Numbered from the stretch's first letter, positions 3,782 to 27,447 are shown. The stretch is 32,000 nt of DNA from Erysipelotrichaceae bacterium MTC7 (GCA_001695645.1 LVZN01000001.1:60001-92000), one strand, 5' to 3'. Notes: a model not told the origin generated them from the letters alone. Program-made: numbers and translations.

Positions 3782-5272
<1,491 letters not shown>

Positions 5273-5277
5273 CTAGA

Positions 5278-6678: not shown

Positions 6679-6750
6679 AATTTTCTCCTTTTAATTTTAA
6701 TTAATTTATTTAAACAATAAATCGCGCGAATTTTATTGTTGAAATCTGGT

Positions 6751-6811
6751 AAAATAAAAACCTCAAACATATAAAGACTTTACGACATAAAATCGTCTTT
6801 ATCGTCTGAGG
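6751..6811 (-). terminator. conditional rho-independent terminator of the EIIBC leader
   Basis: Minus-strand CCTCAGACGATAAAGAC...GTCTTTATATGTTTGAGG followed by TTTTTATTTT. The 5' arm overlaps RAT-C. Confidence 0.7.
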
Positions 6812-6835
6812 TCAAGCCCGAAAGGTAACACCCTC
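6808..6835 (-). promoter_or_regulatory. ribonucleic antiterminator (RAT) element, copy C
   Basis: Minus strand GAGGGTGTTACCTTTCGGGCTTGACCTC. It matches the BglG/LicT RAT pattern (GTTAC...GGC.TGACC) and overlaps the terminator 5' arm. Confidence 0.7.
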
Positions 6836-6850
6836 ATATTGAATTAATCT

Positions 6851-6877
6851 AGGTCAGGCCTCAGCGAGTAACCTTCC
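6851..6877 (-). promoter_or_regulatory. RAT-like element, copy B, immediately after the antiterminator gene stop
   Basis: Minus strand GGAAGGTTACTCGCTGAGGCCTGACCT. It closely parallels copies A and C. I could not fold a terminator of its own. Confidence 0.55.
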
Positions 6878-6882
6878 TATTT

Positions 6883-7722
6883 TTAATAAGTATTCTCGTA
6901 ATCTTCTCTTGTACATAATCGATTCACATGAAGCATTAAATATAACTTCTCTTCATCGGTTAATTCATACTTCATAATATCCTCCAAATAGATTGTTATT
7001 TTTTCAACAACTACATGTGTATCAGGATAAGTATCTACTAAAGTAGTATACATTTCTAAATTCTTTGATGACATAAATTTTTTCTTTTTTCCTCGAATGA
7101 ATAAATAACTCATATGAGAAACAAACCGTGAATAATTTAATTCATCTGTATTAATCTTAATATCATAATATCTTTGAATAATATCTATAATATCTTCAAT
7201 CATTTCTTCATTTTTTTTATCTTCATTGTTTTCCGCTTGTGCCCCTGCATTGATAATGTGCAAAGCTATCATTCCTGCTTCTTGTTTAGGTAATGAAACA
7301 CCTAATTCATTTTTAATGATTTTTAATGCAAATAAGCCTACATCATATTCTTTCTCATATAGGTGCTCAATGTCTTTCATAATTGGTAAACTTATGTCCA
7401 TATCTTTTTTATATCTTTTGATACCAAAGTCGATATGATCCGCAAGTGTAAAAACAAGATTTGGGTTCATCGGATAATCTATCATAATACGACAGTAATC
7501 TGTTATTTTAATAGCAATTTTTATAATTGTTTCAGATATATGATTTACTATATTTAAATAACTAGGGTTTACTTTATAGTATGTTCTTTCAATTTTTGAT
7601 AATTCTATCTCATCATTAAGATTCTTACCAAATCCTATCCCCTTACCAAATACAACTACTTCATTATTATCATTGTCTAAACACAATGTAATATTATTAT
7701 TTATACATCTGATAACCTTCAC
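6883..7722 (-). CDS. BglG/LicT/SacY-family PRD-containing transcription antiterminator
   Basis: 279 aa. N-terminal CAT domain MKVIRCINNNITLCLDNDNNEVVVFGKGIGFGK, followed by two PRD-like halves. GTG start with GGAGG 9 nt upstream. Confidence 0.9.
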   Translation of the reverse strand: MKVIRCINNNITLCLDNDNNEVVVFGKGIGFGKNLNDEIELSKIERTYYKVNPSYLNIVNHISETIIKIAIKITDYCRIMIDYPMNPNLVFTLADHIDFGIKRYKKDMDISLPIMKDIEHLYEKEYDVGLFALKIIKNELGVSLPKQEAGMIALHIINAGAQAENNEDKKNEEMIEDIIDIIQRYYDIKINTDELNYSRFVSHMSYLFIRGKKKKFMSSKNLEMYTTLVDTYPDTHVVVEKITIYLEDIMKYELTDEEKLYLMLHVNRLCTREDYENTY

Positions 7723-7737
7723 ATCTACTTACCTCCA

Positions 7738-8211
7738 TTATTTTTTATGACATGTCATAATAATAGAATCTGTTGTTACTTCTGAGTGATTTTCCATTGT
7801 AACTGAATAATCGTTATTAGTGATGACAAGAGGTGTTGTTAAATCAATATTATTTGTTTCCATTAATGCTCTATCAATCTTTATGATTGGTGTACCATGT
7901 TTTACTTTATCACCTTCACAAACCAAAACCTCAAACCCCTCACCAGCTAATGAAACAGTATCTAAGCCAATATGTAGTAATATCTCAGCATCATTACAAG
8001 CTATAAAACCAATTGCATGTTTTGTTTGAGCAACTAATTGCACAATACCATCTACAGGAGAATAAAGAATATCATCATTAAAAATTAAACCTACACCTTC
8101 CCCCATCATCTTCTTTGAAAAAACTGGATCAGGAACCTCATAAATATCTATTTTTCTACCTTTTACTGGTGAATAAATATCACATTTTTTCTTCTTTTGT
8201 AAACCAAACAT
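7738..8211 (-). CDS. PTS glucose-family EIIA component (stand-alone)
   Basis: 157 aa. GEGVGL...DGIV...TKHAIGF...ILLHIGLDTV...GEGF is the EIIA-Glc fold signature with two conserved His. AAGGAGA RBS. Confidence 0.9.
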   Translation of the reverse strand: MFGLQKKKKCDIYSPVKGRKIDIYEVPDPVFSKKMMGEGVGLIFNDDILYSPVDGIVQLVAQTKHAIGFIACNDAEILLHIGLDTVSLAGEGFEVLVCEGDKVKHGTPIIKIDRALMETNNIDLTTPLVITNNDYSVTMENHSEVTTDSIIMTCHKK

Positions 8212-8371: not shown

Positions 8372-9811
8372 TTATTCTAAATATTCACCATTTGTTTCAA
8401 TCACTTTTTTATACCAATGGAAGCTATCTTTTCGATAACGCTTCATTTCTGAGATTTTTGCTTTTTCATCATCTTCATCACGATCAACATAAATAAACCC
8501 ATAACGCTTTGTTATACCTTCACGTGTTGATACTAAATCAATCGCACTCCATGGACAATATCCAAAAAGCATTGCACCTTCCTCTATTCCTAACTTTATT
8601 TCTTTGATTGTTTCACGCAAGTGTTCAATCCGATATTGATCATGTATTGTTCCATCAGATTCTAAAATATCATCACGACCATAACCATTCTCTGTAACAA
8701 TCAATGGTAAATGATAACGATCAGTTAATCGCCTAGCAGTAACTCTGATACATGATGGATCATAATAATGACCATCAATTTCTGCCTTAGTCATATATTC
8801 ATTATGTATTACCTTACCAACACCTGGTTTTTCCATCAATTTTGCTAAATAACTCATATTACGATTATCTGCATTTTTTAATTCATTCAAATCTAATTTA
8901 TAATAATCTAAATGTTCTGTAGTATCATTCCCATAGCAATTAAAAGCTATAAAATCTGGTTTGCATTCCTTCATCACTTCCATATCTCCCTCATGAATAT
9001 CCAGCTTAACATCATTAAGTTCAAAATATCGATCTACACTCTTAGGATATTCACCAAATACAAGTGGATCTAAATACCAATTATTTCTCAAATCATCCAT
9101 GTTGTAAGCTGCAATTTGATCTTTGGGATTACAGCTTGCTGGATATGAAGTAGTTATATTAGGTGCAGGACCAATTTTTGCATTTGGACTAATTTCATGG
9201 CAAAGTTTTATTGCCTTTGCTTGTGCAACAATTTGTCGATGCCCATCATTATAAATTTCATTCATCGAACGAGTAGATACTCCTCCTCCAATCATATCTA
9301 ATGCCCCAAAGTAAATAAGAGCATTCTGTTCATTGAACGTAAGCCAGTATTTTATATCATCCTTATAATTTTCAAATAAAACACGACAATATTCAACATA
9401 CAAATCAATTAGTTTGCGATTACTCCATCCCCCGTAATTTTCCTGCAATGCTAACGGCAAGTCAAAATGAAAAATGGTCACAATTGGTTCAATTCCATAC
9501 TTCTTACATTCTTTAAATACATTTTTATAAAATCTAATTCCCTCTAAATTTATATCACCTTCACCAGTTGGCATAATTCTTGACCAAGAAATTGACATTC
9601 TATAAGCCTTAAACCCCATCTCTGCCATCATTGCAATATCTTCTTTATAATGATGATAAAAATCACTTGCATAGTGGAAGGAGCAAGTTCCTGGATTTAA
9701 TTTCTTAGTATCCCATATTGATAAACCTCGTCCATCACAATCAAATCCACCTTCAACTTGAGCACTTGATGTAGAGGCCCCCCATAAAAAATTATTTGGA
9801 AAATTTGTCAT
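8372..9811 (-). CDS. 6-phospho-beta-glycosidase, GH1 (paralogue 2)
   Basis: 479 aa. [32 protein letters not shown]. There is no SD close to the ATG; see the hairpin at 9826-9862. Confidence 0.9.
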   Translation of the reverse strand: MTNFPNNFLWGASTSSAQVEGGFDCDGRGLSIWDTKKLNPGTCSFHYASDFYHHYKEDIAMMAEMGFKAYRMSISWSRIMPTGEGDINLEGIRFYKNVFKECKKYGIEPIVTIFHFDLPLALQENYGGWSNRKLIDLYVEYCRVLFENYKDDIKYWLTFNEQNALIYFGALDMIGGGVSTRSMNEIYNDGHRQIVAQAKAIKLCHEISPNAKIGPAPNITTSYPASCNPKDQIAAYNMDDLRNNWYLDPLVFGEYPKSVDRYFELNDVKLDIHEGDMEVMKECKPDFIAFNCYGNDTTEHLDYYKLDLNELKNADNRNMSYLAKLMEKPGVGKVIHNEYMTKAEIDGHYYDPSCIRVTARRLTDRYHLPLIVTENGYGRDDILESDGTIHDQYRIEHLRETIKEIKLGIEEGAMLFGYCPWSAIDLVSTREGITKRYGFIYVDRDEDDEKAKISEMKRYRKDSFHWYKKVIETNGEYLE

Positions 9812-9825
9812 ATTATTTATTATCT

Positions 9826-9862
9826 TTATATTAGAATCGATATAAAATCGATTCTAATATAA
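9826..9862. repeat. perfect 16-bp inverted repeat with a 5-nt loop between two GH1 genes
   Basis: TTATATTAGAATCGAT ataaa ATCGATTCTAATATAA, verified base by base. No U-run follows on either strand. Confidence 0.9.
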
Positions 9863-9890
9863 TCTCCTTTCTACAATTATATTCATATTT

Positions 9891-11357
9891 TTATTCTAAA
9901 TCTTGTCCATTGCTTGCTATTACTTTTTTATACCAATAAAAAGAGTCTTTCTTATAACGATTGTAGGTTCCATTTCCTTTATCATCTACATCAACATAAA
10001 TATAACCGTAGCGTTTAGATGCCTGTCCTGTCGATGCAGCTATTAAATCAATACATCCCCATGAGTTATAAGAAATTAAATCAACTCCGCTTTCTACAGC
10101 CTCCATCATTCCTTTAATATTTTCTCGTAAATAATTTATTCTGTATAAATCATGGATAGAACCATCATTTTCAAGAATATCTTTTGCACCTAACCCATTC
10201 TCTACAATCATTAAAGGTATTTGATATCGATCATAAAGCTCTATAAGTGTAATTTTCAAAACTAAAGGATCAATTGTCCAACCCCATTCACTTTTTTCTA
10301 AATACGGATTATTAATCCCAGTTAATAAATTACCAACTAAATGCTTGGAATCTTTCTCATGAATTGTATAACAACTAGATCCATAGCAAGAAAATGCATA
10401 ATAATCAACTTTTCCTTCTTCTAAGTCTAGAAGATCATTTTCTTCCATTTGGATTTCTATATTATTATCTTTCCAAATTTTCTTGGCATAAGATGGATAG
10501 TAACCACGCACCATTGTATCTCCAAAATAATGAGTGCCATTTTGGCCTTTTTCTATGATTGCTAAATAATCTGCAGGATCAGCTGTTAGCGGATATGTAG
10601 TACCTTGATAAATCATAGACCCTACTTGATAATTTGAATCGGTTTCATGTGCCAATTTCACTACTTTTGCACTTGCAAGCAGAAGATGATGTGATAATTG
10701 GTACGCTTCTTGTAAAGTAATTGCACCAAACACATTTCCTATCATTCCAATTCCATTAATTTCATTAAATGTAATCCAATATTTAACTAAGTCTTTATAT
10801 TCATTAAAACAAACTTTAGAAAATTCAATAAACTCATCAATCATTTTCCGATTAAGCCAGCCCCCATCATATTTATCATCTAAATATGTAGGCATATCAT
10901 ACTTAAACAATGTCACAATTGGTTCAATATCATATTTTTTCAATTCTTCTAACACTGACCGATAGAAATCAATCCCTTTTTGATTTGGACCTTTCTCAAT
11001 ACCAAACGGCATAATTCTTGCCCAAGAAATAGATAAATTTAAAGATTCAAATCCCATTTCTGCAAATAGAGCAATATCTTCTTTATAACGGTGATAAAAA
11101 TCGATTCCATTGCGATTAGGATAATAAATATCACTTTTTTCTAATCGCTTTATTCCTCCTGCAGAAATAATATTCCAGCAAGGGGAAGCATCACTTTTAA
11201 GGTTTCCTTTAGAATCTATATATTCTACTTTTCGAAAAATATCTCCTTCTCCTAAAACTTGTGCATAATCTACTTCAACTGGTGATTTTCCATCTTCATC
11301 CCAAGCCCCTTCACATTGTGCAGCAGAAATAGAACCACCCCATAGTATTTTTTTCAA
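9891..11357 (-). CDS. 6-phospho-beta-glycosidase, GH1 (paralogue 3)
   Basis: 488 aa. ITFNEING, IVENGLG, AASTGQASKRYGYIYVD. TTG start (TTGAAAAAAATACTATGG) 4 nt after the EIIC stop. The N-terminus aligns with paralogue 5, so no alternative start is available. Confidence 0.9.
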   Translation of the reverse strand: MKKILWGGSISAAQCEGAWDEDGKSPVEVDYAQVLGEGDIFRKVEYIDSKGNLKSDASPCWNIISAGGIKRLEKSDIYYPNRNGIDFYHRYKEDIALFAEMGFESLNLSISWARIMPFGIEKGPNQKGIDFYRSVLEELKKYDIEPIVTLFKYDMPTYLDDKYDGGWLNRKMIDEFIEFSKVCFNEYKDLVKYWITFNEINGIGMIGNVFGAITLQEAYQLSHHLLLASAKVVKLAHETDSNYQVGSMIYQGTTYPLTADPADYLAIIEKGQNGTHYFGDTMVRGYYPSYAKKIWKDNNIEIQMEENDLLDLEEGKVDYYAFSCYGSSCYTIHEKDSKHLVGNLLTGINNPYLEKSEWGWTIDPLVLKITLIELYDRYQIPLMIVENGLGAKDILENDGSIHDLYRINYLRENIKGMMEAVESGVDLISYNSWGCIDLIAASTGQASKRYGYIYVDVDDKGNGTYNRYKKDSFYWYKKVIASNGQDLE

Positions 11358-11363
11358 ATAATT

Positions 11364-12662
11364 TTACCTATTACTCTCCTCTTCTAATTTATTCTGTTCT
11401 TCTGCTTCAGCAGCTTGTTCTTTTAAATACAATTGGTTATCATATATCTTAAGGAACGGCCACCAAACTAGAGCAGAAGGAATTATACATAAATATTCAA
11501 ATACTACATTCATTATATTTAATGTTCCAAAATAAGTACCAAACCCCATTGGAAATACACCAAATATCATAATCCATGGTGGAATAATAAAGCCGGTCTG
11601 ATAAGCTATCCAGAACAAAACCATAATAAATAATGAATTTAAAACAAATGGGATACATAAGATAGGGTTAAAAATAATTGGCATCCCAAAGATTACTGGC
11701 TCTGTTATATTAAACCAACCAGGAACTACCCCAACTTTAGCAATCGCACGAACTTGTTTCGATTTTGCTTTTAAACCTAATAAACTTAATGGTAACGGAT
11801 TTCCAGTACCTCCAACAGCTGCCATTGCTCCATATAGAAATACTGGTGCTGCCACTAACGGCAATCCAGCTTCATGTAGTAAGGCATTCGTGTGAATTGC
11901 TTCAAGCATAGAAGCCATAACAATTGGATAAGTTATTGCTCCACCATGAATCCCAAAGCACCATAATACTAAAGTAACAAAACATAAAACAAATATCCCT
12001 GGCAGTGATGTTAATGTACCAAGTGGAACCATCAGCACAGCCATAATGGCAGTAGGTAAATTTAAGGCTCCTGCTGATATAACTGATAAGATTACATTTA
12101 ATCCTTGAAAGATAATTACATTTATTCCAAATGGAATAATTGCTGAAAATGAATTAACTAATGCATCCGGACATACATCAGGCATTGGAATACGAATTTT
12201 TCTATCTGCACAGAATTTTTCAACTCTAATCACCACAAATGAAATAATAAATCCAACAAACATCCCTGTTGATCCTAAAAATGAAACATCAAGTTTCCCA
12301 TCAATCAGTGGTGCACACACTAAAACAAATATAATCCCTGCATCAATTGCATTTGCAAAAGGCATTTTCATCTTTAAATTCTTTGCATAATTATAGGCAA
12401 TAAATAATGTTACCCATATTCCTAATAAATTCATTGTAAAATTGTAAGGAGCATAAATATATCCGTAAACAGCACTCTCTGCAGTGAATAGACCTGCCAT
12501 TGTACCAATAGCACAAATAATTTGACATATTGCTCCAATCATAATAATTGACATCGTTGACATCATCCCAGCAGTTAATGATGCAATGAACTTGTTTGAC
12601 CCTAATTTTTGACTCATTTCTTGTAATTTAACAAGAAATGGATTATTTACTAATTTCTCCAT
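11364..12662 (-). CDS. PTS lactose/cellobiose-family EIIC component
   Basis: 432 aa polytopic protein. The N-terminus MEKLVNNPFLVKLQEMSQKLGSNKFIASLTAGMM is typical of CelB/LicC-type EIIC. Confidence 0.9.
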   Translation of the reverse strand: MEKLVNNPFLVKLQEMSQKLGSNKFIASLTAGMMSTMSIIMIGAICQIICAIGTMAGLFTAESAVYGYIYAPYNFTMNLLGIWVTLFIAYNYAKNLKMKMPFANAIDAGIIFVLVCAPLIDGKLDVSFLGSTGMFVGFIISFVVIRVEKFCADRKIRIPMPDVCPDALVNSFSAIIPFGINVIIFQGLNVILSVISAGALNLPTAIMAVLMVPLGTLTSLPGIFVLCFVTLVLWCFGIHGGAITYPIVMASMLEAIHTNALLHEAGLPLVAAPVFLYGAMAAVGGTGNPLPLSLLGLKAKSKQVRAIAKVGVVPGWFNITEPVIFGMPIIFNPILCIPFVLNSLFIMVLFWIAYQTGFIIPPWIMIFGVFPMGFGTYFGTLNIMNVVFEYLCIIPSALVWWPFLKIYDNQLYLKEQAAEAEEQNKLEEESNR

Positions 12663-12679
12663 ATATAATTCCTTTCTTT

Positions 12680-12979
12680 TTATTTTTTTTCGTAAAGTTT
12701 GTTTACTAATTCCATAATATTAGGACAATTAGCAACAGCATAATCAAATGATTCAATTACAGCACATGGTATATTGGTAGTTTCTTTAATTTCTTCAAGA
12801 CGATACCCTATTTGTGGACCAACCAATATGATGTCATAATTACTATAAACTTCACTGTAATCACTTATACCGACAGCATCTATTTCTAGTTCTATTGATT
12901 GTTCTTCCCAATATTTTTTCATTTTTTTCATCAATAAACTTGTAGATATTCCACCAGCACATACTAATAAAATTTTCAT
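12680..12979 (-). CDS. PTS lactose/cellobiose-family EIIB component
   Basis: MKILLVCAGGISTSLL phospho-Cys motif. The track ORF starts at a GTG (12991) that overlaps the GGAGG, so I prefer the ATG at 12979. Confidence 0.85.
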   Translation of the reverse strand: MKILLVCAGGISTSLLMKKMKKYWEEQSIELEIDAVGISDYSEVYSNYDIILVGPQIGYRLEEIKETTNIPCAVIESFDYAVANCPNIMELVNKLYEKK

Positions 12980-12999
12980 ATCTGCTTTCACCTCCTTTT

Positions 13000-13308
13000 C
13001 TATTTTCGTTTATAAAGTAATATAATTTCTTTTATCAATTCAATAGCAATCATACTTGTCATCAAATGATCTTGTGCATGAATTAATAAAACATCAATAG
13101 CAGTTTTTTCTCCATTTGCTTCTTTAAATAAAAGTTCTGTTTGAGATTTATGTGCTAAATTAATTGCATCATCTGATTTTTTCAGCAATTCCTCAGCTTC
13201 ATCTATATTCCCTACCTTAGCTTTTTGAAGTGCATTGAATGCAAGAGTATGTGCATCACCAGCGTTTGCAATAATTCCAAATGAAACCATTTCAGTATTT
13301 GACTCCAT
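13000..13308 (-). CDS. PTS lactose/cellobiose-family EIIA component
   Basis: 102 aa helical protein. IIANAGDAHTLAF...LLIHAQDHLMTS (phospho-His region) is typical of EIIA-Lac/Cel. Confidence 0.9.
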   Translation of the reverse strand: MESNTEMVSFGIIANAGDAHTLAFNALQKAKVGNIDEAEELLKKSDDAINLAHKSQTELLFKEANGEKTAIDVLLIHAQDHLMTSMIAIELIKEIILLYKRK

Positions 13309-13335: not shown

Positions 13336-13364
13336 ATTTTAGTTTATAAGAATTTTTCAGTCAA
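13336..13364 (-). promoter_or_regulatory. sigma-A type promoter of the cellobiose-family PTS operon
   Basis: Minus strand TTGACT (13364-13359), 17 nt spacer, TAAAAT (13341-13336), about 28 nt upstream of the ATG. Confidence 0.6.
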
Positions 13365-13393: not shown

Positions 13394-13417
13394 TCATACA
13401 CTATTCATCAGTGTTTT
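13394..13417. promoter_or_regulatory. candidate operator/UAS: inverted repeat ACACT-N7-AGTGT (shared motif, copy 1)
   Basis: Plus strand TCATACACTattcatcAGTGTTTT, 33 nt upstream of the -35 box. An inverted AGTGTAT half-site lies at 13463-13469. Near-identical sites occur at 15746-15769 and 24227-24250. Confidence 0.45.
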
Positions 13418-13581
13418 TTTATATTTTTCACACAATATCAATGAACTAGAAAAATCTCATCTAGTGTATATATTTTTCCTAATAAAATTGATTTGTGTTT
13501 ACCCATCACTTATGTTATTTCCTTTTGTATGTTTTACTATAATTATTGTACTTTCATCAATTTTATAAGATTAAATGAAAT

Positions 13582-13633: not shown

Positions 13634-14161
13634 TCAAAATAGTCTTCCTGTAAATTCTATAACTTTCTTATCTAAATATGTACTAAGTGAATTTACAATT
13701 AACTCATGATCCAGCCCATCATGTAATCCAGATATTGCCACCGTTGCTTCTAGGTTTCCTTCTACATAAATCGGAAAAGCTCCACCTACTGGCATACATT
13801 CTTTATTCCCAAATAATTGCTCCATTGAGCTCCCATTCACGATGCCATTCACTAGTTTCCAGAAGCTAGAATGTCCTGTTTCCAAAACACAATTTCTTTT
13901 CAAATTTGCATAAGTTATATTCTTTTTTGTTTTTGTATCCATTACATATTGAAAGATTGGCAACTGATCCTTCTCTCTGGTAATAAGAATAACAATATCT
14001 TCTTCATACCCATCTAAGAGGTCTATTATGATATCACCTAACATATATGCATCTTTACTATTAAAACGAGAAAATTGTAACTGTTTTTCTATACTCTCAA
14101 GTTCTATCAACTGGTTATTAGTATAAGAAAAGTCTAAATGTTCTAACATAGATGTTTTCAT
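13634..14161 (-). CDS. UPF0303 / GlcG-like (heme-degrading-domain family) protein
   Basis: PVGGAFPIYVEGNLEATVAISGLHDGLDHELI resembles the UPF0303/DUF336 C-terminal core. The track ORF starts at a GTG (14173). I prefer the ATG at 14161 (MKTSML) with GGTGA 8 nt upstream; the ATG at 14170 is also possible. Confidence 0.6.
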   Translation of the reverse strand: MKTSMLEHLDFSYTNNQLIELESIEKQLQFSRFNSKDAYMLGDIIIDLLDGYEEDIVILITREKDQLPIFQYVMDTKTKKNITYANLKRNCVLETGHSSFWKLVNGIVNGSSMEQLFGNKECMPVGGAFPIYVEGNLEATVAISGLHDGLDHELIVNSLSTYLDKKVIEFTGRLF

Positions 14162-14162
14162 A

Positions 14163-15146
14163 TTACTCATCACCAGGAAAAATAATCCCTGCTTCTAGTC
14201 TTGCTTTAGTCATAATTTCACTTACTGCAATACTTTGTTCCAATTGTTGATAGCAATATTGATAATCTTTATCATTTATAGCATTAATAAACGCAGTAAA
14301 CTCAGGTACTAACCTTTCATATGCACTCTTATCATCAAATTGTTCTTCTGTGCCATCATTTAATTTAATTGTAACTTCTCCAACTAAATTTGGAGGAAAT
14401 GAACTTCTAATAACCCCATTTGTACCTTGAATCAATCCACCAACCACTCCACCACAGTCTTTTGCAGCAAAACAGTGAGCATTAAATTTAGGGTAATTTA
14501 GAACTAATAATCCATTTGTATCAATATCTCTTTCAATTGTTGGATAATACTTCACATTATCTGGTTTTCCAAATAATCCCATTACATAATGTAAATTATA
14601 TAAATTCAAATCCATTAAAGCACCACCAGCTTTTTTAGGATCAAAAGCTGGTAATATCTCACCTGCTTTAAAAGAATCATATCTCCTTGATTGTTGTGTA
14701 TGATTGCTTTCTACATTTTTAACTTCTCCTATTCTTGGCAACCACTCTTTAATCTTTAAAAATGTTCCTAGATAAACCGTTGTGATAGCTTCAAACAAGA
14801 ATAGTTTCTTTTCTTGCGCTAACTTCTTTAGTTCCATGGCTTCTCTAACATTGCTAGTCATTGGTTTTTCAATAATAACGTTTAGTCCTTTTTCTAGTGA
14901 TTTTTTACAGAACTCATAGTGTATAAAATTGGGCACCGCTACATAAACTGTATCAATTCCAGAAGCACACATTTCATCAAAAGAAACAGTTGTAAACTTT
15001 ACTCCATTGTCATCTCCAAGTTTTTTTGCATTATTAAACTCTTCTATAGTACTCATGATTCCTAATACTTCTATTCCATCCATCTTTACCATTTTAGGCA
15101 AAAAATCTTGAACAATCATTCCTGAACCAATAATTCCTAGTTTCAT
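14163..15146 (-). CDS. Gfo/Idh/MocA-family NAD(P)-dependent oxidoreductase
   Basis: 327 aa. N-terminal Rossmann motif MKLGIIGSGMI and the EKP motif (VIIEKPM) are characteristic of the family. Confidence 0.85.
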   Translation of the reverse strand: MKLGIIGSGMIVQDFLPKMVKMDGIEVLGIMSTIEEFNNAKKLGDDNGVKFTTVSFDEMCASGIDTVYVAVPNFIHYEFCKKSLEKGLNVIIEKPMTSNVREAMELKKLAQEKKLFLFEAITTVYLGTFLKIKEWLPRIGEVKNVESNHTQQSRRYDSFKAGEILPAFDPKKAGGALMDLNLYNLHYVMGLFGKPDNVKYYPTIERDIDTNGLLVLNYPKFNAHCFAAKDCGGVVGGLIQGTNGVIRSSFPPNLVGEVTIKLNDGTEEQFDDKSAYERLVPEFTAFINAINDKDYQYCYQQLEQSIAVSEIMTKARLEAGIIFPGDE

Positions 15147-15157
15147 CTTTATACCCC

Positions 15158-15634
15158 CTACATAATACTTCCTACAACTTGGTAGGAATCTTTTGTATAC
15201 TGCATAATCTCAAACTTATTTCCATCAGGATCATGTACCCACATCTGATAGGTTCCAGAAGGCCCTTTGGATATTTCAGTATCTATCTCCACACCACGTT
15301 TCATCAATTCTTCTCTCGTTTGATAAATATCATCTACAAGTAATGCATAGTGAGAATACCCTATATTTTGGTTCCATTTGTCATGTGGCCCCTGCCCTTC
15401 AAAACTTGGGAACAACTCGATGAATTGTCCTGGTGCAATTTCTATATAGACAATAACCACTTTTTCAGGATCCGTTTTTGCAAGTTGCTGATATAATTCA
15501 CTTCCTTCATTTGCATATGCTTTTGCTTTCGTAACAATTTTTGGTTTTAATCCCAGTTTATTTTCATAAAAATCTCTCATTACATCCATTTGATCAGTAA
15601 AAAATGTAACATGCATAATTGAATTAAATTTCAT
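15158..15634 (-). CDS. VOC (glyoxalase/bleomycin-resistance/dioxygenase) family protein
   Basis: 158 aa. The HVTFFTDQMDVMRDFYENKLGL opening and the HYALLV...DPDGNKFEI end are typical of the paired beta-alpha-beta-beta-beta VOC modules. Confidence 0.75.
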   Translation of the reverse strand: MKFNSIMHVTFFTDQMDVMRDFYENKLGLKPKIVTKAKAYANEGSELYQQLAKTDPEKVVIVYIEIAPGQFIELFPSFEGQGPHDKWNQNIGYSHYALLVDDIYQTREELMKRGVEIDTEISKGPSGTYQMWVHDPDGNKFEIMQYTKDSYQVVGSIM

Positions 15635-15647
15635 TTTTCCTCCTTTG

Positions 15648-15665
15648 CAATCGATAAATCGATTG
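15648..15665. repeat. 18-bp palindrome directly upstream of the VOC gene RBS
   Basis: CAATCGAT aa ATCGATTG with perfect 8-bp arms. It shares the AATCGAT/ATCGATT core with the 9826-9862 repeat. Confidence 0.8.
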
Positions 15666-15745
15666 TGCTAAATTATTATTCATTTTAATTTTAATGCATA
15701 ATGACAGTTCAAAAAAGTAGTCCTTATTTTTCTCATTAAAATTAT

Positions 15746-15769
15746 TTATACACTAAATTTAAGTGTCTC
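15746..15769. promoter_or_regulatory. candidate operator/UAS: inverted repeat ACACT-N7-AGTGT (shared motif, copy 2)
   Basis: Plus strand TTATACACTaaatttaAGTGTCTC, 37 nt upstream of a TTGAAC -35-like box. An inverted half-site AGTGTATGATTA lies at 15825-15836. Confidence 0.45.
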
Positions 15770-16001
15770 TGAATATTTGTAATAAAATCATTAAAATATA
15801 TAAATAACCAAAATTATTAACAATAGTGTATGATTATTTATGAAAGTAAACTTGTAGTGTCTTGGCATATATCTATATTCATTCTTTTGTATAATATAAA
15901 AAAAATCATAAAATCGCACTTTGAAATAGTATCCATCTTTGATTTCCATGGAGATGGAAAAATCTCTCTCTATTATAGTTACTATTTATTTTCAAATGTC
16001 T

Positions 16002-16041: not shown

Positions 16042-18648
16042 TCATATTTTTTTAACCATTGTAATCAAGTTAGCTATTTCATAATCATCAATAATAATTT
16101 TAAATACTTTCTCAATTTTCCTAATAATTTTTGATATTATGCGATATTCATCACTATAAGACTTAATTATTTCATCACTTCTTGGATTCTTAGTTGTGCT
16201 ATTTCCTGATAACACTCTTTCAATTAACCCCGCTATATGAACAAATAAACCCAGTGCTTGGTCACCATCTAAATTATAAATAAGAGACAATTCCTCCACT
16301 ACCGATGGAAGCGTAGTTTTTAATTTTGTCATAGAAGTTTCTGTAAACTGTTCAGATAAATTCTTATAAACTAAACTATAATCTATATTCATTTCATTTA
16401 CTGGTTCAAACATTAATATACGGTCAACATTATTGCTAGGTACTTCAAAAATACTACTGATGGGGATGTAGGGGATACCAAATAACTTCGGATCATAAGT
16501 TCCCACAAATGCGTGAATATTATATGCTTTACGGATGTCTAAAATCTCTTTTATTAAAATATCACGATTAGATATTGCCAATGCAATTGTTTTCATGCCT
16601 AGTCGCGAATGGCTGTCAATGTAATTTTTTAGTTGTAAGGCGCCACCTTCTCCCGTATGACACAGTGTAACAATTGCCGTATTATGTAAATTTTGTTGTC
16701 TTTTTCTATTTTCATACTCCAGATTAACTGAATGATATACAGAATCTATATCACCTTCCATAGAACATTTTCTCGCTATATCTATCCCTAACAGTGTTAC
16801 TGGAACATTCATATAACGAATTTTAACATCAATCTCCTCGGATATTGCATCTACCATCGTTTTGATTGACCCCATATCATAAACTATGATAACTCCAGCA
16901 CCTTGATCTATCTTTAGTATAAGCGTTTTAATTTCTTCCACAGCTTGCTTAGATTGACTATCTAAAGTTAAATCATAACTATATGCATTGCTACACTGTG
17001 TTAATGAGTTTGTAACATCACTTAATGATTTCGCAGTACTATTTCCATGCATAATATATAGTAATACTGGTTTAATATCTTCATCATCTTTTTCAGATCC
17101 AATTAAAAATAATGCAATAATAACTACTTCTGCGATATCCAAATCTAAATTTAGTTCTTTTTTTAACATAGATACAAACTGCGATGCTGCAGTATATTCA
17201 TCTGGATAATTTTGAATTACTTCAACTATCTGATCATTGTTAATTCTTTGGCTTCCAATACTTTGTGACAATAATGAATTAGTATGTAAGCATAATCCAT
17301 AAAATATATTTGATTTTAATTTGACATTTTTCTCTTTTTCAAAATCATCTACTAATATTGTTACTAGTGAAATTATTCTTCTGTCCACAATTTTTGATAA
17401 ATGTTCTAAGTTTTTATTATCGTTCTCTATACTATAACTATATAAATCGAAAAATTTCTTGATATGCTTATTCATGACCTCTTCAATACTTTCAACTTTA
17501 ATTCCACGATTTGTCATTTCATCATATTGTGTTTTAATATCGCCATACATTGTCCCTAAGTGGTCAAGCGAGTATTCTGGATTTTTTCCATATATAAAAT
17601 ACTCTCGTACACCTAATAATTCTTCTAAAGATTCTCTATATTTTTTGGCTAATAATAGCCCTCTTTTTACATTAGCAGTAAAATCATTAATGCAAACGAA
17701 AATCTCTTTATCTGACTCTGTTACTACCCTTATATATGCATTGGCGCAAGAAGCCATTATTTCATCTCTTAATTCTTTTAGATTGAAAGCAAATTTCGTC
17801 AACAACAAGCCTTTAATTGACTCTGAAGTTACCTTAACATCTCGATTAGAATTTTGTGCTTCTGTTGCATAAAATCTATTAATTAATTCTAGCCGTTCCG
17901 AAAAGGGGCGATCACTTAATGGTGGCAGTTCGATAATGGCAGGTACTTTTCTTTCCACACCAGAACCTTTAGAAGTTACAGACAGTATTAAGTTCACATC
18001 ACTATAATCAACCAATTTATCATCATATTGTAAATAGTTGGTTTCCAAAAAGGAAAAAATTAATGCCTGCTGTTTTACATTTAACATATCAAATCCTTCT
18101 ATAAATAGTATTCCCCCTCGTGCCTTTTCAAAATAAGAATTATGATTACTTCCTAATCCAAATAGTTCATTATTTAAGGTAGATATATCTTTACTGTAGT
18201 GATGACAGTTGATTTCTTCAAATGGAGAATCTATCTGTAATATTTTACTTTCTACAGCAAATTGATAAACCAAAGACGCAAATGTTGATATACCGCTTCC
18301 ATGTTCTGCAGAGATTAAAATATTCAAGCTCCTTTGTGGATATAAAACAGCAGCTTTTGCTAATTGAATAGCATTTTTCAAACTTCCTTCATTACCTACT
18401 ATTTTAGAAAAACATGTACCTGTATTAATTTCTTCCTGTTTTTCGCAAATTCTATACTTAACAGGTCTAGTATTAGATTTTTCTAACTTCCCTTCCTTAA
18501 TTAACTCATTAAGAATTGTACTTACATTAGATTTCCTTATACCAAGAGCTTCGGCTATATCAGTCGTAATAACGCCATTGATAAACTTATTATCCGTATA
18601 CATTTTTTGAGTAATATAATCAAAAACTATTTCTTTTAATGGCTTCAT
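16042..18648 (-). CDS. LevR/ManR-type PRD-containing transcriptional regulator with a degenerate sigma54-EBP AAA+ domain
   Basis: 868 aa. N-terminal wHTH (DIAEALGIRKSNVSTILNELIKEGKL). The central region aligns with EBP AAA+ modules, but Walker A reads AEHGSGIS, no GAFTGA is present and Walker B reads LFIEGF. It is followed by a PRD, an EIIA-Man-like segment (LLYIMHGNSTAKS...VIIVYDMGS), an EIIB-Gat-like segment (AIVTLCHTGEGGALQLK) and a second PRD (LGLFVHIAGLIER). Confidence 0.8.
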   Translation of the reverse strand: MKPLKEIVFDYITQKMYTDNKFINGVITTDIAEALGIRKSNVSTILNELIKEGKLEKSNTRPVKYRICEKQEEINTGTCFSKIVGNEGSLKNAIQLAKAAVLYPQRSLNILISAEHGSGISTFASLVYQFAVESKILQIDSPFEEINCHHYSKDISTLNNELFGLGSNHNSYFEKARGGILFIEGFDMLNVKQQALIFSFLETNYLQYDDKLVDYSDVNLILSVTSKGSGVERKVPAIIELPPLSDRPFSERLELINRFYATEAQNSNRDVKVTSESIKGLLLTKFAFNLKELRDEIMASCANAYIRVVTESDKEIFVCINDFTANVKRGLLLAKKYRESLEELLGVREYFIYGKNPEYSLDHLGTMYGDIKTQYDEMTNRGIKVESIEEVMNKHIKKFFDLYSYSIENDNKNLEHLSKIVDRRIISLVTILVDDFEKEKNVKLKSNIFYGLCLHTNSLLSQSIGSQRINNDQIVEVIQNYPDEYTAASQFVSMLKKELNLDLDIAEVVIIALFLIGSEKDDEDIKPVLLYIMHGNSTAKSLSDVTNSLTQCSNAYSYDLTLDSQSKQAVEEIKTLILKIDQGAGVIIVYDMGSIKTMVDAISEEIDVKIRYMNVPVTLLGIDIARKCSMEGDIDSVYHSVNLEYENRKRQQNLHNTAIVTLCHTGEGGALQLKNYIDSHSRLGMKTIALAISNRDILIKEILDIRKAYNIHAFVGTYDPKLFGIPYIPISSIFEVPSNNVDRILMFEPVNEMNIDYSLVYKNLSEQFTETSMTKLKTTLPSVVEELSLIYNLDGDQALGLFVHIAGLIERVLSGNSTTKNPRSDEIIKSYSDEYRIISKIIRKIEKVFKIIIDDYEIANLITMVKKI

Positions 18649-18739
18649 ATAATCATCCTCCAGTTACATACTTTATACATTAATTATACTATATTCACTT
18701 TCGTTATCATATATTATCATCTAATTGATTATAATGGCT

Positions 18740-18747: not shown

Positions 18748-20102
18748 GGTAGTGTAAAATATCTTGTGTAAACTCCCGGAATTACCAATCCAGGAGAAAT
18801 AGTTAATATAGAAAAAGGGCGCCGTTCCTAGTAGAATTAATTGTGACTAAACAATATTCGAAAGGACGACTACCTATGAACAATTTTAGCACAGAAATCT
18901 ACAAGGCACTATCACAAGGTTTAAATATTGACCAAATCATTTGCAATGAACTGCAAGACCAGATCAATTACTTACTTAAAACGGAACTAACAGCTTTCCT
19001 TGACTATGATAAGCATGATGTACGTGGTTACAACTCTGGTAACTCTCGTAACGGATTTTACACTCGTGACCTTGAAACTAAATATGGAACTATCAAGGTG
19101 GAGGTACCTAGAAATCGTAATGGTGAGTTTAACCAACAAACCATTCAACCATATGCACGCAGAACTGATGATTTAGAAACTGCAATTCTTCATTTGTATT
19201 CTAAAGGTGTAACCACCGCGGAAATCGCTGATCTGATTGAGAAAATGTATGGTCATGCTTATTCGCCGGCAACAATTTCAAACATAACGATGGCGGTTGA
19301 AGAACATGTACAAGCCTTTCACTCAAGAAAACTGAACGAACGATATACCGTTGTTTATGGAGACGCCACAATGATTAATGTCAGACGCGATAGTGTTTCC
19401 AAAGAAGCGCTACATATATTAATTGGGATTACTCCTGAAGGTACTAAAGAGGTACTAGATTACCGACTATACCCTCAAGAATCAAGCGAAAACTATAAAG
19501 AAATGCTTGAAGACATTAAGCAACGTGGTACGCTAGAAATTCTTCTTTTCGTAACTGATGGTTTATCTGGACTAGCGAATGCTTGTTTAGATGTTTACCC
19601 AAAAGCAAAACATCAAGCTTGCTGGGTGCATATTCAACGAAGTGTTTCTAGAAACGTTTGTGCCAAAGACAAGAAAGAAGTTCTTGATGATTTAAAACCG
19701 GTATATAGAGCGAAAGATGAAGTTGAAGCACAAAATCATCTTGAAACGTTTAAAGATAAATACAAGAGTCGGTATCCAAAGGTGATTAAATCACTAACGG
19801 ATAATCAATCATTATTCAGTTTTTATGAATTCCCAGAAGCAATCAGAAGTAGTCTTTATACGACAAATCTCATTGAGGGGATGAATAAACAATTGAAGCG
19901 TAATACAAAACGTAAAGAACAATTTCCAAACGAAGACTCTCTTGATCGGTTTGTATGTGACTACATGATGGATTACAACAGACGGTTTTCCACACGAATC
20001 CATAAAGGGTTCGAAGTGGTACAAGCAGAGATTAATGAAATGTTTGATAAATGATACAATTAAATTCTACTGTGACGTTTACACAAAATTATTGACACTA
20101 CC
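18748..20102 (+). mobile_element. intact IS256-family insertion sequence (1355 bp)
   Basis: Left terminus GGTAGTGTAAAATATCTTGTGTAAAC (18748-18773). The reverse complement of the right terminus (20077-20102) is GGTAGTGTCAATAATTTTGTGTAAAC, which matches at 22 of 26 positions. One long transposase ORF and an 8-bp direct duplication, as expected for IS256. Confidence 0.95.
18876..20054 (+). CDS. IS256-family (Mutator-like) DDE transposase
   Basis: VVYGDATMINVRRD, LLFVTDGLSGL...KHQACWVHIQRSV and TTNLIEGMNKQLKRNTK match the D, D and E regions of IS256-type transposases. The track ORF begins at a GTG (18843). I prefer the in-frame ATG at 18876 (MNNFSTE). Confidence 0.9.
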   Translation: MNNFSTEIYKALSQGLNIDQIICNELQDQINYLLKTELTAFLDYDKHDVRGYNSGNSRNGFYTRDLETKYGTIKVEVPRNRNGEFNQQTIQPYARRTDDLETAILHLYSKGVTTAEIADLIEKMYGHAYSPATISNITMAVEEHVQAFHSRKLNERYTVVYGDATMINVRRDSVSKEALHILIGITPEGTKEVLDYRLYPQESSENYKEMLEDIKQRGTLEILLFVTDGLSGLANACLDVYPKAKHQACWVHIQRSVSRNVCAKDKKEVLDDLKPVYRAKDEVEAQNHLETFKDKYKSRYPKVIKSLTDNQSLFSFYEFPEAIRSSLYTTNLIEGMNKQLKRNTKRKEQFPNEDSLDRFVCDYMMDYNRRFSTRIHKGFEVVQAEINEMFDK

Positions 20103-24107: not shown

Positions 24108-24226
24108 TTTTCCTCGCTTTCCGCATACGATAAAATGTACGCTACAATAAAATTATGATTTCATTATGATTTTAATATATATATGATTTTCAAGAAAGTC
24201 GCTTTCACCTTTTTTAATGTAGAAAT

Positions 24227-24250
24227 TCATACACTAAAGTATAGAGTTTT
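24227..24250. promoter_or_regulatory. candidate operator/UAS: inverted repeat ACACT-N7-AGAGT (shared motif, copy 3)
   Basis: Plus strand TCATACACTaaagtatAGAGTTTT, 37 nt upstream of a TTGAAA -35-like box. An inverted half-site AGTGTAT lies at 24307-24313, within the palindrome CCATATACTAGTGTATGG. Confidence 0.45.
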
Positions 24251-24394
24251 ATATCCACTATATAGTCCTTATCATAAACCTCAAAATTAATATCAATCCA
24301 TATACTAGTGTATGGAATTTTATATCAATTATGTATTTGTGTTCTAATAATCCAAATAGTTACTTCTTTTTGTATGTTCAAATTAATTTTTAGT

Positions 24395-24706
24395 AAAACT
24401 TCAGAAATTCCAAAATCATTAGTGATTAGTGTAAAAAATAAATAATGGGTGATGTCACTGAACTCAAGTACGGAAAGAAGAATAAAAAAAACTCTATTTA
24501 AGTGCATTTCTTGATTTGTATGATAGAAATCTCGTTGGCTACAAAATAAGTTAGCACAATGATAATCCCTTAGTACTTAATTCCTTTAATAAGGCAGTGG
24601 CTGTAAACAAAATGATCATCCTCTAGTACATACAAATGGTGATTATCAATATACTAGTACAGACTTTATAAAGCTTCTAGGATGACACATAGTATGTTTG
24701 TGAATA
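24395..24706 (+). pseudogene. IS3-family (IS150-like) orfB integrase-core remnant, heavily decayed
   Basis: Stitching frames gives W-V-(shift)-DVTELKYGKKNKK-(shift)-LYLSAFLDLYDRNLVGYKIS*HNDNPLVLNSFNKAVAVN-(shift)-NDHPLVHTNGDYQYTSTDFIKLLG-(shift)-MTHSMF. This follows the IS3 DDE-core pattern (TDVTEF...LYLS..D...R.IVGY, H.D.G.QYTS). The left boundary is approximate. Confidence 0.6.
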
Positions 24707-24849: not shown

Positions 24850-25215
24850 AAGCATTTCTCATGGATTTTCCATCAAGTATAATTTCATATGCATTTGGCG
24901 TAATTCTGTCTAGAACGGAATCTGCCAATATGTTTCCACCAAGTTGAGAATGCCACTCCTTGGGCTCAAGTTGTGAGCATACAATAGTTGACTTTGTTCC
25001 ATATCGATATTCAAGAAGCTGAAATAAGTAATTTACCTCCTTATCGATTAATTCGTTAATTAAAAAATCATCAAGGATTAATACATCATACTTTGCGTAT
25101 TTTTTGATTGCTTTACTTACTGTTCCTGTTAGTATTTTTTCTTGATTGCAATCATCAATGAATTCAAATATCCTACAATAAAATGTGGAATGGGAATTGT
25201 CGCAAGCATGGTTAC
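24848..25215 (-). pseudogene. IS21-family IstB helper ATPase, C-terminal ~120 codons only
   Basis: Reverse translation gives ACDNSHSTFYCRIFEFIDDCNQEKILTGTVSKAIKKYAKYDVLILDDFLINELIDKEVNYLFQLLEYRYGTKSTIVCSQLEPKEWHSQLGGNILADSVLDRITPNAYEIILDGKSMRNA*. This covers the Walker B LILDD and the IstB C-terminal pattern. In-frame stops upstream remove the Walker A part. Confidence 0.7.
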
Positions 25216-26157: not shown

Positions 26158-27447
26158 CTACTCCCACTCAATTGTTCCCGTAGGTTTTGGTGTTAGATCA
26201 TATAGTACACGATTGACATTTGGTACTTCTTTAACAATTCGATCAGTTACTTTTAATAATACTTCCCAGTCTAGCAATTCAATTGTTGCTACCATTGCAT
26301 CAATGGTATTTACGGCACGAATGATTACTGGGTATTCAAAAGTTCGTTCATGATTGCGAACACCAACACTCTTGAAATCAGGTACGACTGTGAAGTATTG
26401 CCACACTTTTTTATCTAATCCATATTTTACGAATTCTTCTCTAAGGATTGCATCCGATTCGCGCACAGCATCCAAACGTTCTTTCGTGATTGCTCCTAGA
26501 CATCTTACACCAAGACCAGGTCCAGGGAAAGGTTGTCTAAACACCATGTGTGCAGGTAAACCCAATTCAAGTCCACAAGCACGCACTTCATCTTTAAACA
26601 ATTGATATAGTGGTTCAATTAATTTGAACTTCATATCTTCAGGTAATCCACCAACGTTGTGGTGTGATTTAACAACCTTTGCGGTTTTTGTTCCACTCTC
26701 TACGATATCTGGATAGATGGTACCTTGTGCAAGATAATCAATTCCGTCCAATTTATCTGCTTCTTCGTCGAATACAACAATAAATTCATTACCGATAATT
26801 TTGCGTTTTTCTTCCGGATCTGAAACACCATCTAATTTAGATAAAAAGCGTTCACTCGCATCCACATAGATTAGATTTGCATCCAGTTGGTTTCTAAATA
26901 CTTCAACTACATCTTCTGATTCACCTTTACGCATCAATCCATGGTTTACGTGAACACAAACCAGTTGTTTTCCAATTGCTTTAATAAGTAAAGCTGCAAC
27001 AACCGATGAATCCACTCCTCCAGATAAAGCTAGCAATACTTTCTTATCACCAACTTCATTTCGTACACGTTCCACTTGGTCCGCTACGAAGTTTTTCATA
27101 TTCCAGTTTTTCTCGGCCTTACAAATATTTAAAACAAAGTTTTCGGTTTGTGGAATTGTTGGATAACGATCCAATTTTGTTGCTTTATCGCTTTCGTGAT
27201 CGATGGCTAAAAATGGTACATCCAGTTCATAGATCTCTGGATTTACATCAATTGCTTGTCCATCTACGATGCGGTTTTCACCACCGTTTAAAATAATTCC
27301 TTTCACATTAGGTAAAGCCTGCAATTCAGCTTTTGTAATGTCATGTGGATAAATTTCACTGTAAACATTTAAGGTACGAATATCACGTGCCAATGTTGTA
27401 TTTTCTGTACTCCCTAAATCGAGTATAACGATCATATCTTGTTTCAT
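26158..27447 (-). CDS. guaA: GMP synthase with an intact ATP-pyrophosphatase and dimerisation part but a vestigial N-terminal amidotransferase domain
   Basis: 429 aa. P-loop LALSGGVDSSV, KSHHNVGGLP, RQPFPGPGLGVR and a C-terminal ...PTGTIEWE are all GuaA hallmarks. The N-terminal ~95 aa resembles only the first half of a class I GATase and has no G-x-C-x-G-x-Q nucleophile elbow. Confidence 0.85.
   Translation of the reverse strand: MKQDMIVILDLGSTENTTLARDIRTLNVYSEIYPHDITKAELQALPNVKGIILNGGENRIVDGQAIDVNPEIYELDVPFLAIDHESDKATKLDRYPTIPQTENFVLNICKAEKNWNMKNFVADQVERVRNEVGDKKVLLALSGGVDSSVVAALLIKAIGKQLVCVHVNHGLMRKGESEDVVEVFRNQLDANLIYVDASERFLSKLDGVSDPEEKRKIIGNEFIVVFDEEADKLDGIDYLAQGTIYPDIVESGTKTAKVVKSHHNVGGLPEDMKFKLIEPLYQLFKDEVRACGLELGLPAHMVFRQPFPGPGLGVRCLGAITKERLDAVRESDAILREEFVKYGLDKKVWQYFTVVPDFKSVGVRNHERTFEYPVIIRAVNTIDAMVATIELLDWEVLLKVTDRIVKEVPNVNRVLYDLTPKPTGTIEWE

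Follow-up and report, generated by a model that had tools for sequence, protein, structure and literature searches.

The closest described relatives of the protein treated here are the sigma-54-dependent regulators of the LevR/CelR/ManR(Listeria) type, known from Bacillus subtilis (LevR) and from Listeria monocytogenes, Clostridium acetobutylicum, Bacillus thuringiensis and Enterococcus faecalis (CelR). A regulator with the same domain order is encoded at positions 16042 to 18648, on the minus strand, of a 32,000-nucleotide stretch of the genome of Erysipelotrichaceae bacterium MTC7 (GCA_001695645.1, LVZN01000001.1:60001-92000; hereafter the window, with positions counted from its first letter). 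It resembles the LevR/CelR type also in its conserved His and Cys phosphorylation sites, in the targets of its family, i.e. a Lac/cellobiose-family phosphotransferase system (PTS), GH1 enzymes and a DUF3284/CelI-like gene, and in its DNA boxes, to which AGTGTAT/TGTATA in intact relatives is related; the recognition box given in the E. faecalis CelR paper is ACACA...TGTGT. It departs from this type by a series of losses: GAFTGA is absent, and so are the Lys of Walker A, the DE of Walker B and the Arg of sensor II. Its predicted target promoters are of the -35/-10 instead of the -24/-12 type, and the start is separated by about 70 bp from the nearest upstream box, compared with about 100-125 bp for the enhancers of sigma-54 forms. 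The gene probably encodes a LevR/CelR-type, PTS-controlled regulator of a beta-glucoside (cellobiose-type) regulon that acts without sigma-54 and without ATP hydrolysis.

The PRD-containing activators MtlR, LicR and ManR (B. subtilis) are controlled by PTS phosphorylation and bind just upstream of the sigma-A promoters of PTS operons, the same regulatory logic as is proposed here. Unlike the present protein, they carry a helix-turn-helix (HTH) plus Mga-like N-terminal module and EIIB-Gat followed by EIIA-Mtl, with no AAA+ domain; the Pfam layout found here differs. Homologues of enhancer-binding proteins (EBPs) with a defective GAFTGA that work with sigma-70 comprise TyrR, DhaR, HupR, VpsR and YplP (Francke et al. 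2011), and further sigma-54-independent cases are known in VpsR and Caulobacter NtrC. TyrR/PhhR, VpsR, DhaR, HupR, NtrX and Caulobacter NtrC share with the present protein an EBP-type AAA+ domain devoid of a functional GAFTGA and promoters of the sigma-70 type, and two of them, VpsR and NtrX, rank high among the structural matches of its model. However, proteins of the TyrR, VpsR and NtrX kind are proteobacterial and combine receiver or ACT/PAS sensory domains with a C-terminal HTH, whereas the present protein receives its input through PTS phosphorylation and carries its DNA-binding domain at the N-terminus. Several sigma-54-independent EBP derivatives still bind nucleotide; the subclade of the present protein, in contrast, has lost the P-loop lysine. 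Within the LevR type, LevR of Lactobacillus casei controls, according to the title of the report, an 'RpoN-independent' PTS operon (Mazé et al. 2004, J Bacteriol 186:4543). Judged by that title alone its functional mode is the same, although its PTS is of the mannose class and not, as here, of the Lac class. A reading of the window made earlier from the sequence only (the sequence-only reading) had regarded this mode of action as uncharacterized for the family. Since L. casei LevR was reported as RpoN-independent in the title of 2004, and with TyrR, DhaR, HupR and VpsR known to lack a functional GAFTGA, that claim falls: EBP derivatives that do without sigma-54 are already on record, as is one LevR system independent of RpoN, and no new principle is involved. 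The remainder of that interpretation, a PTS-controlled, EBP-derived regulator with neither a canonical ATPase nor a GAFTGA contact and with sigma-A-type targets, holds up and extends to a whole clade in which promoter class co-varies.

The domains of the protein were assigned as follows; the ratio of nonsynonymous to synonymous substitution rates is abbreviated dN/dS.

16042..18648, minus strand: regulator gene, 868 aa, LevR/CelR-type with degenerate AAA+ domain; 100% identity to 'transcriptional regulator [Erysipelotrichaceae bacterium MTC7]'
18439..18648, minus strand: N-terminal winged helix-turn-helix (wHTH), aa 1-70; weak Pfam wHTH matches at residues 26-68, AlphaFold2 helices and strands at 4-67
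17659..18402, minus strand: NtrC-like AAA+ core and lid, aa 83-330; partial Pfam PF00158 match, Foldseek, dN/dS
17089..17433, minus strand: PRD1, about aa 406-520, with invariant His455; Pfam and conservation
16699..17070, minus strand: EIIA-Man-like domain, aa 527-650, with His534 (IMHG); Pfam PF03610 at residues 532-635, matches to PDB 3gx1 (Lin1832) and 3gdw
16414..16686, minus strand: putative EIIB-Gat-like domain at about aa 655-745, containing the invariant Cys663; AlphaFold2 beta-alpha-beta fold and conservation
16045..16401, minus strand: PRD2, aa 750-868, with invariant His804; Pfam and conservation

This order (wHTH, NtrC-like AAA+, PRD1, EIIA-Man, EIIB-Gat, PRD2) is that of LevR and CelR. 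The ManR/LevR layout given in the sequence-only reading is recovered by Pfam for the wHTH (weakly), the AAA+ domain, the two PRDs (86 bits) and EIIA-Man. The EIIB-Gat-like domain gave no Pfam match in the 868-aa protein; its assignment would follow from the beta-alpha-beta segment 657-716 of the model and from Cys663, invariant in the clade, in the motif LCHTGEGGA. Invariant in the clade are also His455 in PRD1 and His804 in PRD2, and His534 in the EIIA-like domain is nearly so: among 72 sequences His534 is kept in at least 90% and His804 in all, and in a broader set of 130 a histidine occupies the corresponding positions in 121 and 126 sequences, respectively. The wHTH, with a mean pairwise identity of 52% within the clade, presumably recognizes the TTATACACTA boxes described below. 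NCBIfam holds no model for the clade, its best match to the protein being DagR with 204 bits against a cut-off of 1400.

The homology of the central domain with the AAA+ domain of bacterial EBPs (bEBPs) is apparent from a partial match to Sigma54_activat (PF00158; residues 83-206, profile positions 1-122 of 168, 38 bits), from phmmer (E = 2e-4 to NtrC1) and from the Foldseek matches given below. Its motifs were compared with those of NtrC1 (PDB 1ny6/3m0e); MAFFT alignments with intact LevR-like proteins had the same outcome.

18286..18309, minus strand: Walker A remnant AEHGSGIS, aa 114-121, with Ile120 in place of the Lys; GESGVGKE in NtrC1
18112..18168, minus strand: ELFGLGSNHNSYFEKARGG, aa 161-179, where a deletion of 8 residues takes out the GAFTGA L1 loop; alignments
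18088..18111, minus strand: Walker B remnant ILFIEGFD, aa 180-187, DE replaced by EG; LFLDE in NtrC1 versus LFIEG here, aa 181-185

The replacement of the Walker A Lys by Ile and the altered Walker B had been recognized in the sequence-only reading, and both were recovered in the comparison with NtrC1. The absence of the GAFTGA loop was likewise read correctly, but the segment is shortened by 8 residues in both alignments and not by about 6 (ELFGYEKGAFTGAVSS in NtrC1 versus ELF--------GLGSNH here). In addition, sensor II has a Lys in place of its Arg (FNLKEL), and the 'TE' of the sensor I motif is lost relative to the intact LevR-like proteins. The arginine pair RRIP of intact relatives reads RKVP, with one Arg retained at a position that is not conserved in the clade. 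This pattern of losses supports the view that the regulator can neither hydrolyse ATP in the canonical manner nor contact sigma-54 through GAFTGA.

These losses are a property of a clade. Among the best 120 homologues listed (36-100% identity), 112 were full-length; none of the 112 had a GAFTGA-like motif and only 10 had retained G.GK[ST]. The usual remnant of the P-loop in the clade is GCGT[TS] and its Walker B consensus is LFIDN. As a control for the regular expressions, 120 homologues of an intact LevR-like protein from Lacticaseibacillus were examined, and all three motifs were detected in 119 of them. The 120 homologues originate from Clostridium, Enterococcus, Streptococcus, Oenococcus, Lactiplantibacillus, Trichococcus and many Erysipelotrichaceae. 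An exhaustive search of 50%-identity representatives retrieved 1,757 relatives, and 130 full-length sequences, taken from the top 150 of these and supplemented by eight homologues of the first search, were surveyed: 93 lacked GAFTGA and DE, 33 were fully intact and 4 were intermediate. The phylogenetic survey that had been called for thus places the degenerate form in a clade, and the regulator family is a large one, not a one-off protein. A neighbour-joining tree was built from residues 331-868 only, because the AAA+ region could otherwise bias it. In this tree the intact sequences clustered separately and the sequences without GAFTGA formed one large group. The Walker A Lys is kept in the basal lineages of that group (48 sequences; cluster names from Erysipelotrichales only) and lost repeatedly elsewhere (45 sequences), and the MTC7 protein falls into a lysine-less crown group. 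From this branching we infer that the L1 deletion and the loss of the catalytic Glu came first and that the P-loop Lys was lost later, several times. A full-text literature search, which is weak evidence of absence because most subscription journals lay outside its coverage, found no description of the clade, its box or its promoter architecture.

The catalytically degenerate domain is maintained as well as the rest of the protein. Mean pairwise identity within the clade is 49% for the AAA+ core and 53% for the lid, compared with 52% for the wHTH and 46-47% for the PRDs. In about 45 pairs from Clostridium, Nei-Gojobori dN/dS was 0.076 for the core, 0.065 for the lid and 0.086 for the whole gene, rough values at a dS of about 1.2; over all domains, the dead one included, the ratio was about 0.07-0.09. 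The AlphaFold2 model has a mean predicted local distance difference test (pLDDT) score of 80.5, with residues 83-330 mostly at 80-92. Its top PDB matches in Foldseek are bEBP AAA+ domains (LuxO, NtrC1, PspF and FleQ, target TM-score about 0.74); LuxO, VpsR, NtrC1 and PspF were found at probability 1.0, and VpsR and NtrX ranked high with lower target TM-scores (about 0.5). With an identity on a par with that of the other domains, a low dN/dS that indicates purifying selection and a bEBP fold in the model, the AAA+ domain is a conserved pseudo-ATPase and not a relic.

The class of the target promoters changes together with the GAFTGA motif. A scan of all intergenic regions of the window confirmed the earlier observation that none carries a -24/-12 promoter. 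No credible -24/-12 element was found in 35 regions upstream of IIA genes or at 11 loci of a co-directional subclade, together 46 degenerate loci. Intact relatives, in contrast, have TTGGCA-N7-TTGC in all six PTS promoters beside five intact regulators. At four loci where an intact relative accompanies a Lac-family PTS, all five promoters read TTGGCATG-N4-TTGC(T/A), located 58-86 nt before the start codon; the promoter beside an intact Lacticaseibacillus regulator with a mannose-class PTS reads TTGGCACGAAGCTTGCTT. Since boxes related to those of the clade (AGTGTAT/TGTATA) lie upstream at the intact loci, DNA recognition appears to have been kept while the type of promoter changed. Thus, an AAA+ domain without GAFTGA is accompanied by promoters that, by their conservation, are of the sigma-A type, and the comparison supports sigma-A-type targets whose class co-varies with GAFTGA status across the clade. 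Members of the clade occur in Streptococcus sanguinis, S. pasteurianus and Oenococcus, and neither sigma-54 nor EBPs were counted in S. sanguinis SK36, S. agalactiae and O. oeni PSU-1; the counts of sigma-54 and EBPs are 1 and 5 in E. faecalis and 1 and 3 in C. acetobutylicum (Francke 2011, supplementary file 1).

The L. casei LevR was not retrieved by tblastn against plasmids, which returned only intact sigma-54-type regulators, one of them beside a plasmid-borne rpoN. It was also absent among the best 120 homologues of the Lacticaseibacillus LevR-like seed, 119 of which are intact, and its phosphorylation-site positions (488/776) matched none of the representatives. Its target promoter is said to be of the -35/-10 type. 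The plasmid-borne rpoN (4462-5757 of the fetched locus, L. paracasei plasmid NZ_CP048004.1) has as neighbours the gene of an intact LevR/DagR-like regulator and a PTS of the mannose class accompanied by a DgaE-family lyase, and the locus constitutes a portable sigma-54 module.

The candidate operator was found by k-mer counting in 35 DUF3284/IIA intergenic regions, where the TAGTGTATA/TTATACACTA box is present in 31-33 of the 35; its consensus from 91 instances is tTATACA(C/G)TA. The layout is stereotyped: two tandem boxes 31 bp apart are followed by a third, inverted box 80 bp further, which always starts 37-39 bp upstream of the -35 element. The TTGACA -35 element is overlapped by a sequence resembling a catabolite-responsive element (cre), TGAAAGCGCTT, and is followed by a 17-bp spacer and TAAAAT. 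In Clostridium and Erysipelotrichaceae loci a fourth box (TTTATACAC) lies inside the spacer. The PTS promoter of the window matches this form exactly. The corresponding elements of the window are listed with the presumed target operons.

8372..13308, minus strand: target operon, PTS Lac/cellobiose-family IIA, IIB and IIC and two GH1 6-phospho-beta-glucosidases; Pfam, synteny
13336..13364, minus strand: predicted sigma-A promoter of the PTS operon, TTGACT-17-TAAAAT (TTGACT 13359-13364, TAAAAT 13336-13341)
13340-13350, minus strand: one-mismatch inner box CTTATAAACTA in the PTS-promoter spacer and -10; same arrangement conserved in Clostridium and Erysipelotrichaceae
13395..13403, minus strand: promoter-proximal box of the PTS operon, TAGTGTATG, starting 38 bp upstream of the -35
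13461..13470, minus strand: distal box of the PTS operon, TATACACTAG, 15.0 bits
13634..15634, minus strand: second putative target operon, glyoxalase-family, GFO/IDH/MocA oxidoreductase and HbpS-like genes; Pfam, box/promoter geometry
15746..15755, minus strand: box TAGTGTATAA upstream of the glyoxalase operon, 17.6 bits, the best of the window
15823-15832: second box of the glyoxalase operon
18672..18683, plus strand: weak box TTTATACATTAA, scored at 10.4 bits, 24 bp upstream of the regulator's start codon
20170..24107, minus strand: third putative target operon, encoding two GH1 proteins and a kinase or regulator of the ROK family; Pfam, boxes
24194-24207: cre-like TGAAAGCGACTTTC upstream of the GH1-GH1-ROK operon
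24227..24236, minus strand: box TAGTGTATGA upstream of the GH1-GH1-ROK operon
24305-24314 and 24426-24435: further boxes of the GH1-GH1-ROK operon

Of 12 matches to the position weight matrix at 9 bits or more, 9 are located in four promoter regions that make up about 4% of the window. The total of 12 is no higher than in shuffled sequences (5-15), and the weight of the box derives only from this clustering and from conservation across species. The sequence-only reading had pointed to three sites with the palindrome ACACT-N7-AGTGT. The sites are real, but the palindrome itself shows no significant enrichment (3 occurrences against 0.9 expected, 3 reached in 8 of 100 shuffles), and it was replaced as operator by the asymmetric TTATACACTA, the conserved unit. 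Similarly, the good sigma-A-type -35/-10 pairs described for the adjacent operons hold fully only for the PTS operon, because the other two operons have poorer hexamers: in the glyoxalase and GH1-ROK operons an upstream box precedes a TTGAA(C/A) hexamer by 37 bp, and the -10 elements are poorly spaced. The weak box in front of the regulator gene may serve autoregulation. A near-perfect box (TTTATACACTAT, 16.8 of 17.6 bits; 14916-14927, minus strand) lies inside the GFO/IDH/MocA coding sequence, either by chance or as an internal site. A perfect palindrome, AATCGAT-TT-ATCGATT (about 15650-15668, minus strand), between the promoter of the glyoxalase operon and its ribosome-binding site may be the operator of a different regulator. 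In most species the -35 element of the PTS promoter in the DUF3284/IIA intergenic region is overlapped by a cre-like site (TGAAAGCGCTT or TGTAAGCGCTT), which indicates a conserved catabolite repression by CcpA layered on the regulator.

In the mechanism that we propose, the wHTH would bind the TTATACACTA boxes, and the dead AAA+ domain would act as a scaffold for nucleotide-independent oligomerization and signal relay, coupling the PRD/EII-like module to DNA binding or to polymerase contact. Phosphorylation of His534 by HPr~P would activate the regulator and that of His804 by EIIB~P would inhibit it, so that the switch would be set by the availability of substrate and glucose. These roles are assigned because Listeria CelR works in this way, as summarized in the E. 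faecalis CelR paper. Bound to the box about 70 bp upstream of the predicted transcription start, the active form would recruit sigma-A RNA polymerase like a class I activator. In the uninduced state the promoter may be kept off through the additional box that lies in its spacer and -10, and CcpA at the cre site would add catabolite repression.

Several points weigh against this proposal. The scaffold role of the AAA+ domain is pure inference. The core promoter of the PTS operon is near-consensus and holds a conserved box in its spacer and -10, a position typical of repressors. Scans with consensus sigma-70-type hexamers gave no enrichment over shuffles in the AT-rich window, so the promoter call relies on cross-species conservation. 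The helical phasing of the boxes is not clear (Rayleigh R 0.38 at 10.3 bp versus 0.42 at 11.5 bp), and their placement on the same face of the helix was dropped. The regulatory direction is the main uncertainty: the term activator is a proposal and may be wrong or incomplete, because a conserved box sits inside a near-consensus core promoter, and this combination favours a repressive or dual component. A regulator that is mainly a PTS-controlled repressor, or a dual regulator like AraC or TyrR, would shut a strong sigma-A promoter through the spacer/-10 box and the upstream boxes and would release it or rearrange upon the PTS substrate signal. A near-consensus TTGACA-17-TAAAAT, present in most loci, does not need an activator, and the inner box is conserved in Clostridium and Erysipelotrichaceae, with one mismatch at 13340-13350 in the window. 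The fixed box spacings of 31, 80 and 54 bp suggest a multi-site nucleoprotein complex, and TyrR, the classic GAFTGA-less EBP homologue, is sigma-70-dependent and replaceable as a repressor by PhhR (Francke 2011). Yet the internal box is absent from the loci of Lactobacillales (S. pasteurianus, E. casseliflavus), whereas the upstream box, about 70 bp before the start, is universal; the other two operons of the window have a poor -35, as is common in activator-dependent promoters; and the LevR/CelR-type regulators of the literature consulted are activators. We consider a predominantly repressing or dual regulator rather unlikely. What speaks for activation is the history of the family, together with an upstream box that is universal and with the weak promoters in front of the other two operons.

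A persisting link to sigma-54, if the protein formed hetero-oligomers with an intact EBP paralogue or made contact in some unconventional way, would fit the sigma-54-bearing genera to which many Clostridium and Enterococcus hosts of the clade belong and the score that Pfam still assigns to the domain as Sigma54_activat. It is nevertheless highly improbable, given that GAFTGA, the loss of which is taken by surveys to end sigma-54 activation, is deleted, that 0 of 46 loci have the -24/-12 promoter always found beside intact relatives, and that the family occurs in S. sanguinis and Oenococcus, a 2011 survey having counted no sigma-54 in its genomes of S. sanguinis and O. oeni. A decaying, non-functional remnant of a sigma-54 activator might be suspected from the loss of all catalytic motifs and from the IS256-type element 195 bp upstream. 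This explanation is practically untenable and is refuted at the level of the clade by the low dN/dS in all domains, the dead one included, by synteny and cis-elements conserved over at least 35 species, and by phosphorylation-site residues that are invariant or nearly so; the 868-aa reading frame is, moreover, intact. A more far-reaching version of the PTS-controlled, sigma-54-independent regulator preferred here is put forward tentatively and may well prove wrong. The dead AAA+ domain, as a nucleotide-independent platform, would let the protein bridge a fixed array of four or five TTATACACTA boxes, including the one in the core promoter, and form a PTS-switched repressor-to-activator, a Firmicute counterpart of TyrR and AraC. 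It would represent a large unnamed family that lost GAFTGA and Walker B first and then, repeatedly, the P-loop Lys, and that controls beta-glucoside use in gut Erysipelotrichia, Clostridia and Lactobacillales.

The genes neighbouring the regulator are all encoded on the minus strand (Pfam): the glyoxalase operon and then the PTS operon follow downstream, and GH1-GH1-ROK lies upstream beyond an IS256-family transposase gene. As in the LevR/CelR architecture, the regulator adjoins its presumed target PTS operon. Synteny was sampled at six loci fetched by protein identity and at 57 loci from GTDB species genomes. In nearly all of them a divergent DUF3284 gene comes next after the regulator, ahead of IIA-IIB-IIC of the Lac family and GH1; in the distant subclade that keeps Walker A, the PTS genes follow directly after the regulator on the same strand. 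MTC7 has no DUF3284 (CelI/ChbD-like) gene beside the regulator, where nearly all other genomes carry one in divergent orientation, and the glyoxalase/GFO-IDH/HbpS-like operon (13634-15634) with the same box is found instead. A glyoxalase homologue (62% identity) also flanks the locus of Lactiplantibacillus nangangensis. The window holds five GH1 genes (repeat families D1-D9) and a separate beta-glucoside system (3782-8211, minus strand) under a BglG-type antiterminator.

7738-8211, minus strand: EIIA-Glc
6883-7722, minus strand: CAT-PRD antiterminator
5278-6678, minus strand: EIIBC
3782-5254, minus strand: GH1

Mobile elements are represented by the IS256/Mutator-family transposase gene between the GH1-GH1-ROK operon and the regulator (18843-20054, plus strand) and by a second copy (1385-2100, plus strand), 98% identical with a 1-nt indel, which lacks the first third of the gene and is split into two open reading frames (ORFs; 1370-1894 and 1891-2172). 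A fragment of an IstB/IS21 helper ATPase (24851-25165, minus strand; only profile positions 141-231 of 238 of Pfam PF01695) is the remnant of another mobile element in a non-coding gap, 1.5 kb long, on the upstream side of the GH1 gene at 24107. The guaA ORF (26158-27447, minus strand) comprises only 429 aa, and its glutamine amidotransferase domain covers only profile positions 1-78 of 190, which suggests an internal deletion, a frameshift or an assembly error.

Proteins of the clade are named 'sigma 54-interacting' or plain 'PRD domain-containing' in databases, and systematic sigma-54 surveys filter on GAFTGA and hence leave them out. Because both miss it, a family that probably amounts to hundreds of 50%-identity clusters has been overlooked. 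Its recognition would correct sigma-54 regulon predictions in Firmicutes and supply a candidate operator motif and a predicted promoter architecture for the cellobiose/beta-glucoside PTS regulons of gut Erysipelotrichaceae, Clostridium, Enterococcus, Streptococcus and lactobacilli. The natural series from intact proteins through forms that would only bind ATP to those with a dead P-loop may be used to probe what an AAA+ ring is worth to a transcription factor without a motor.

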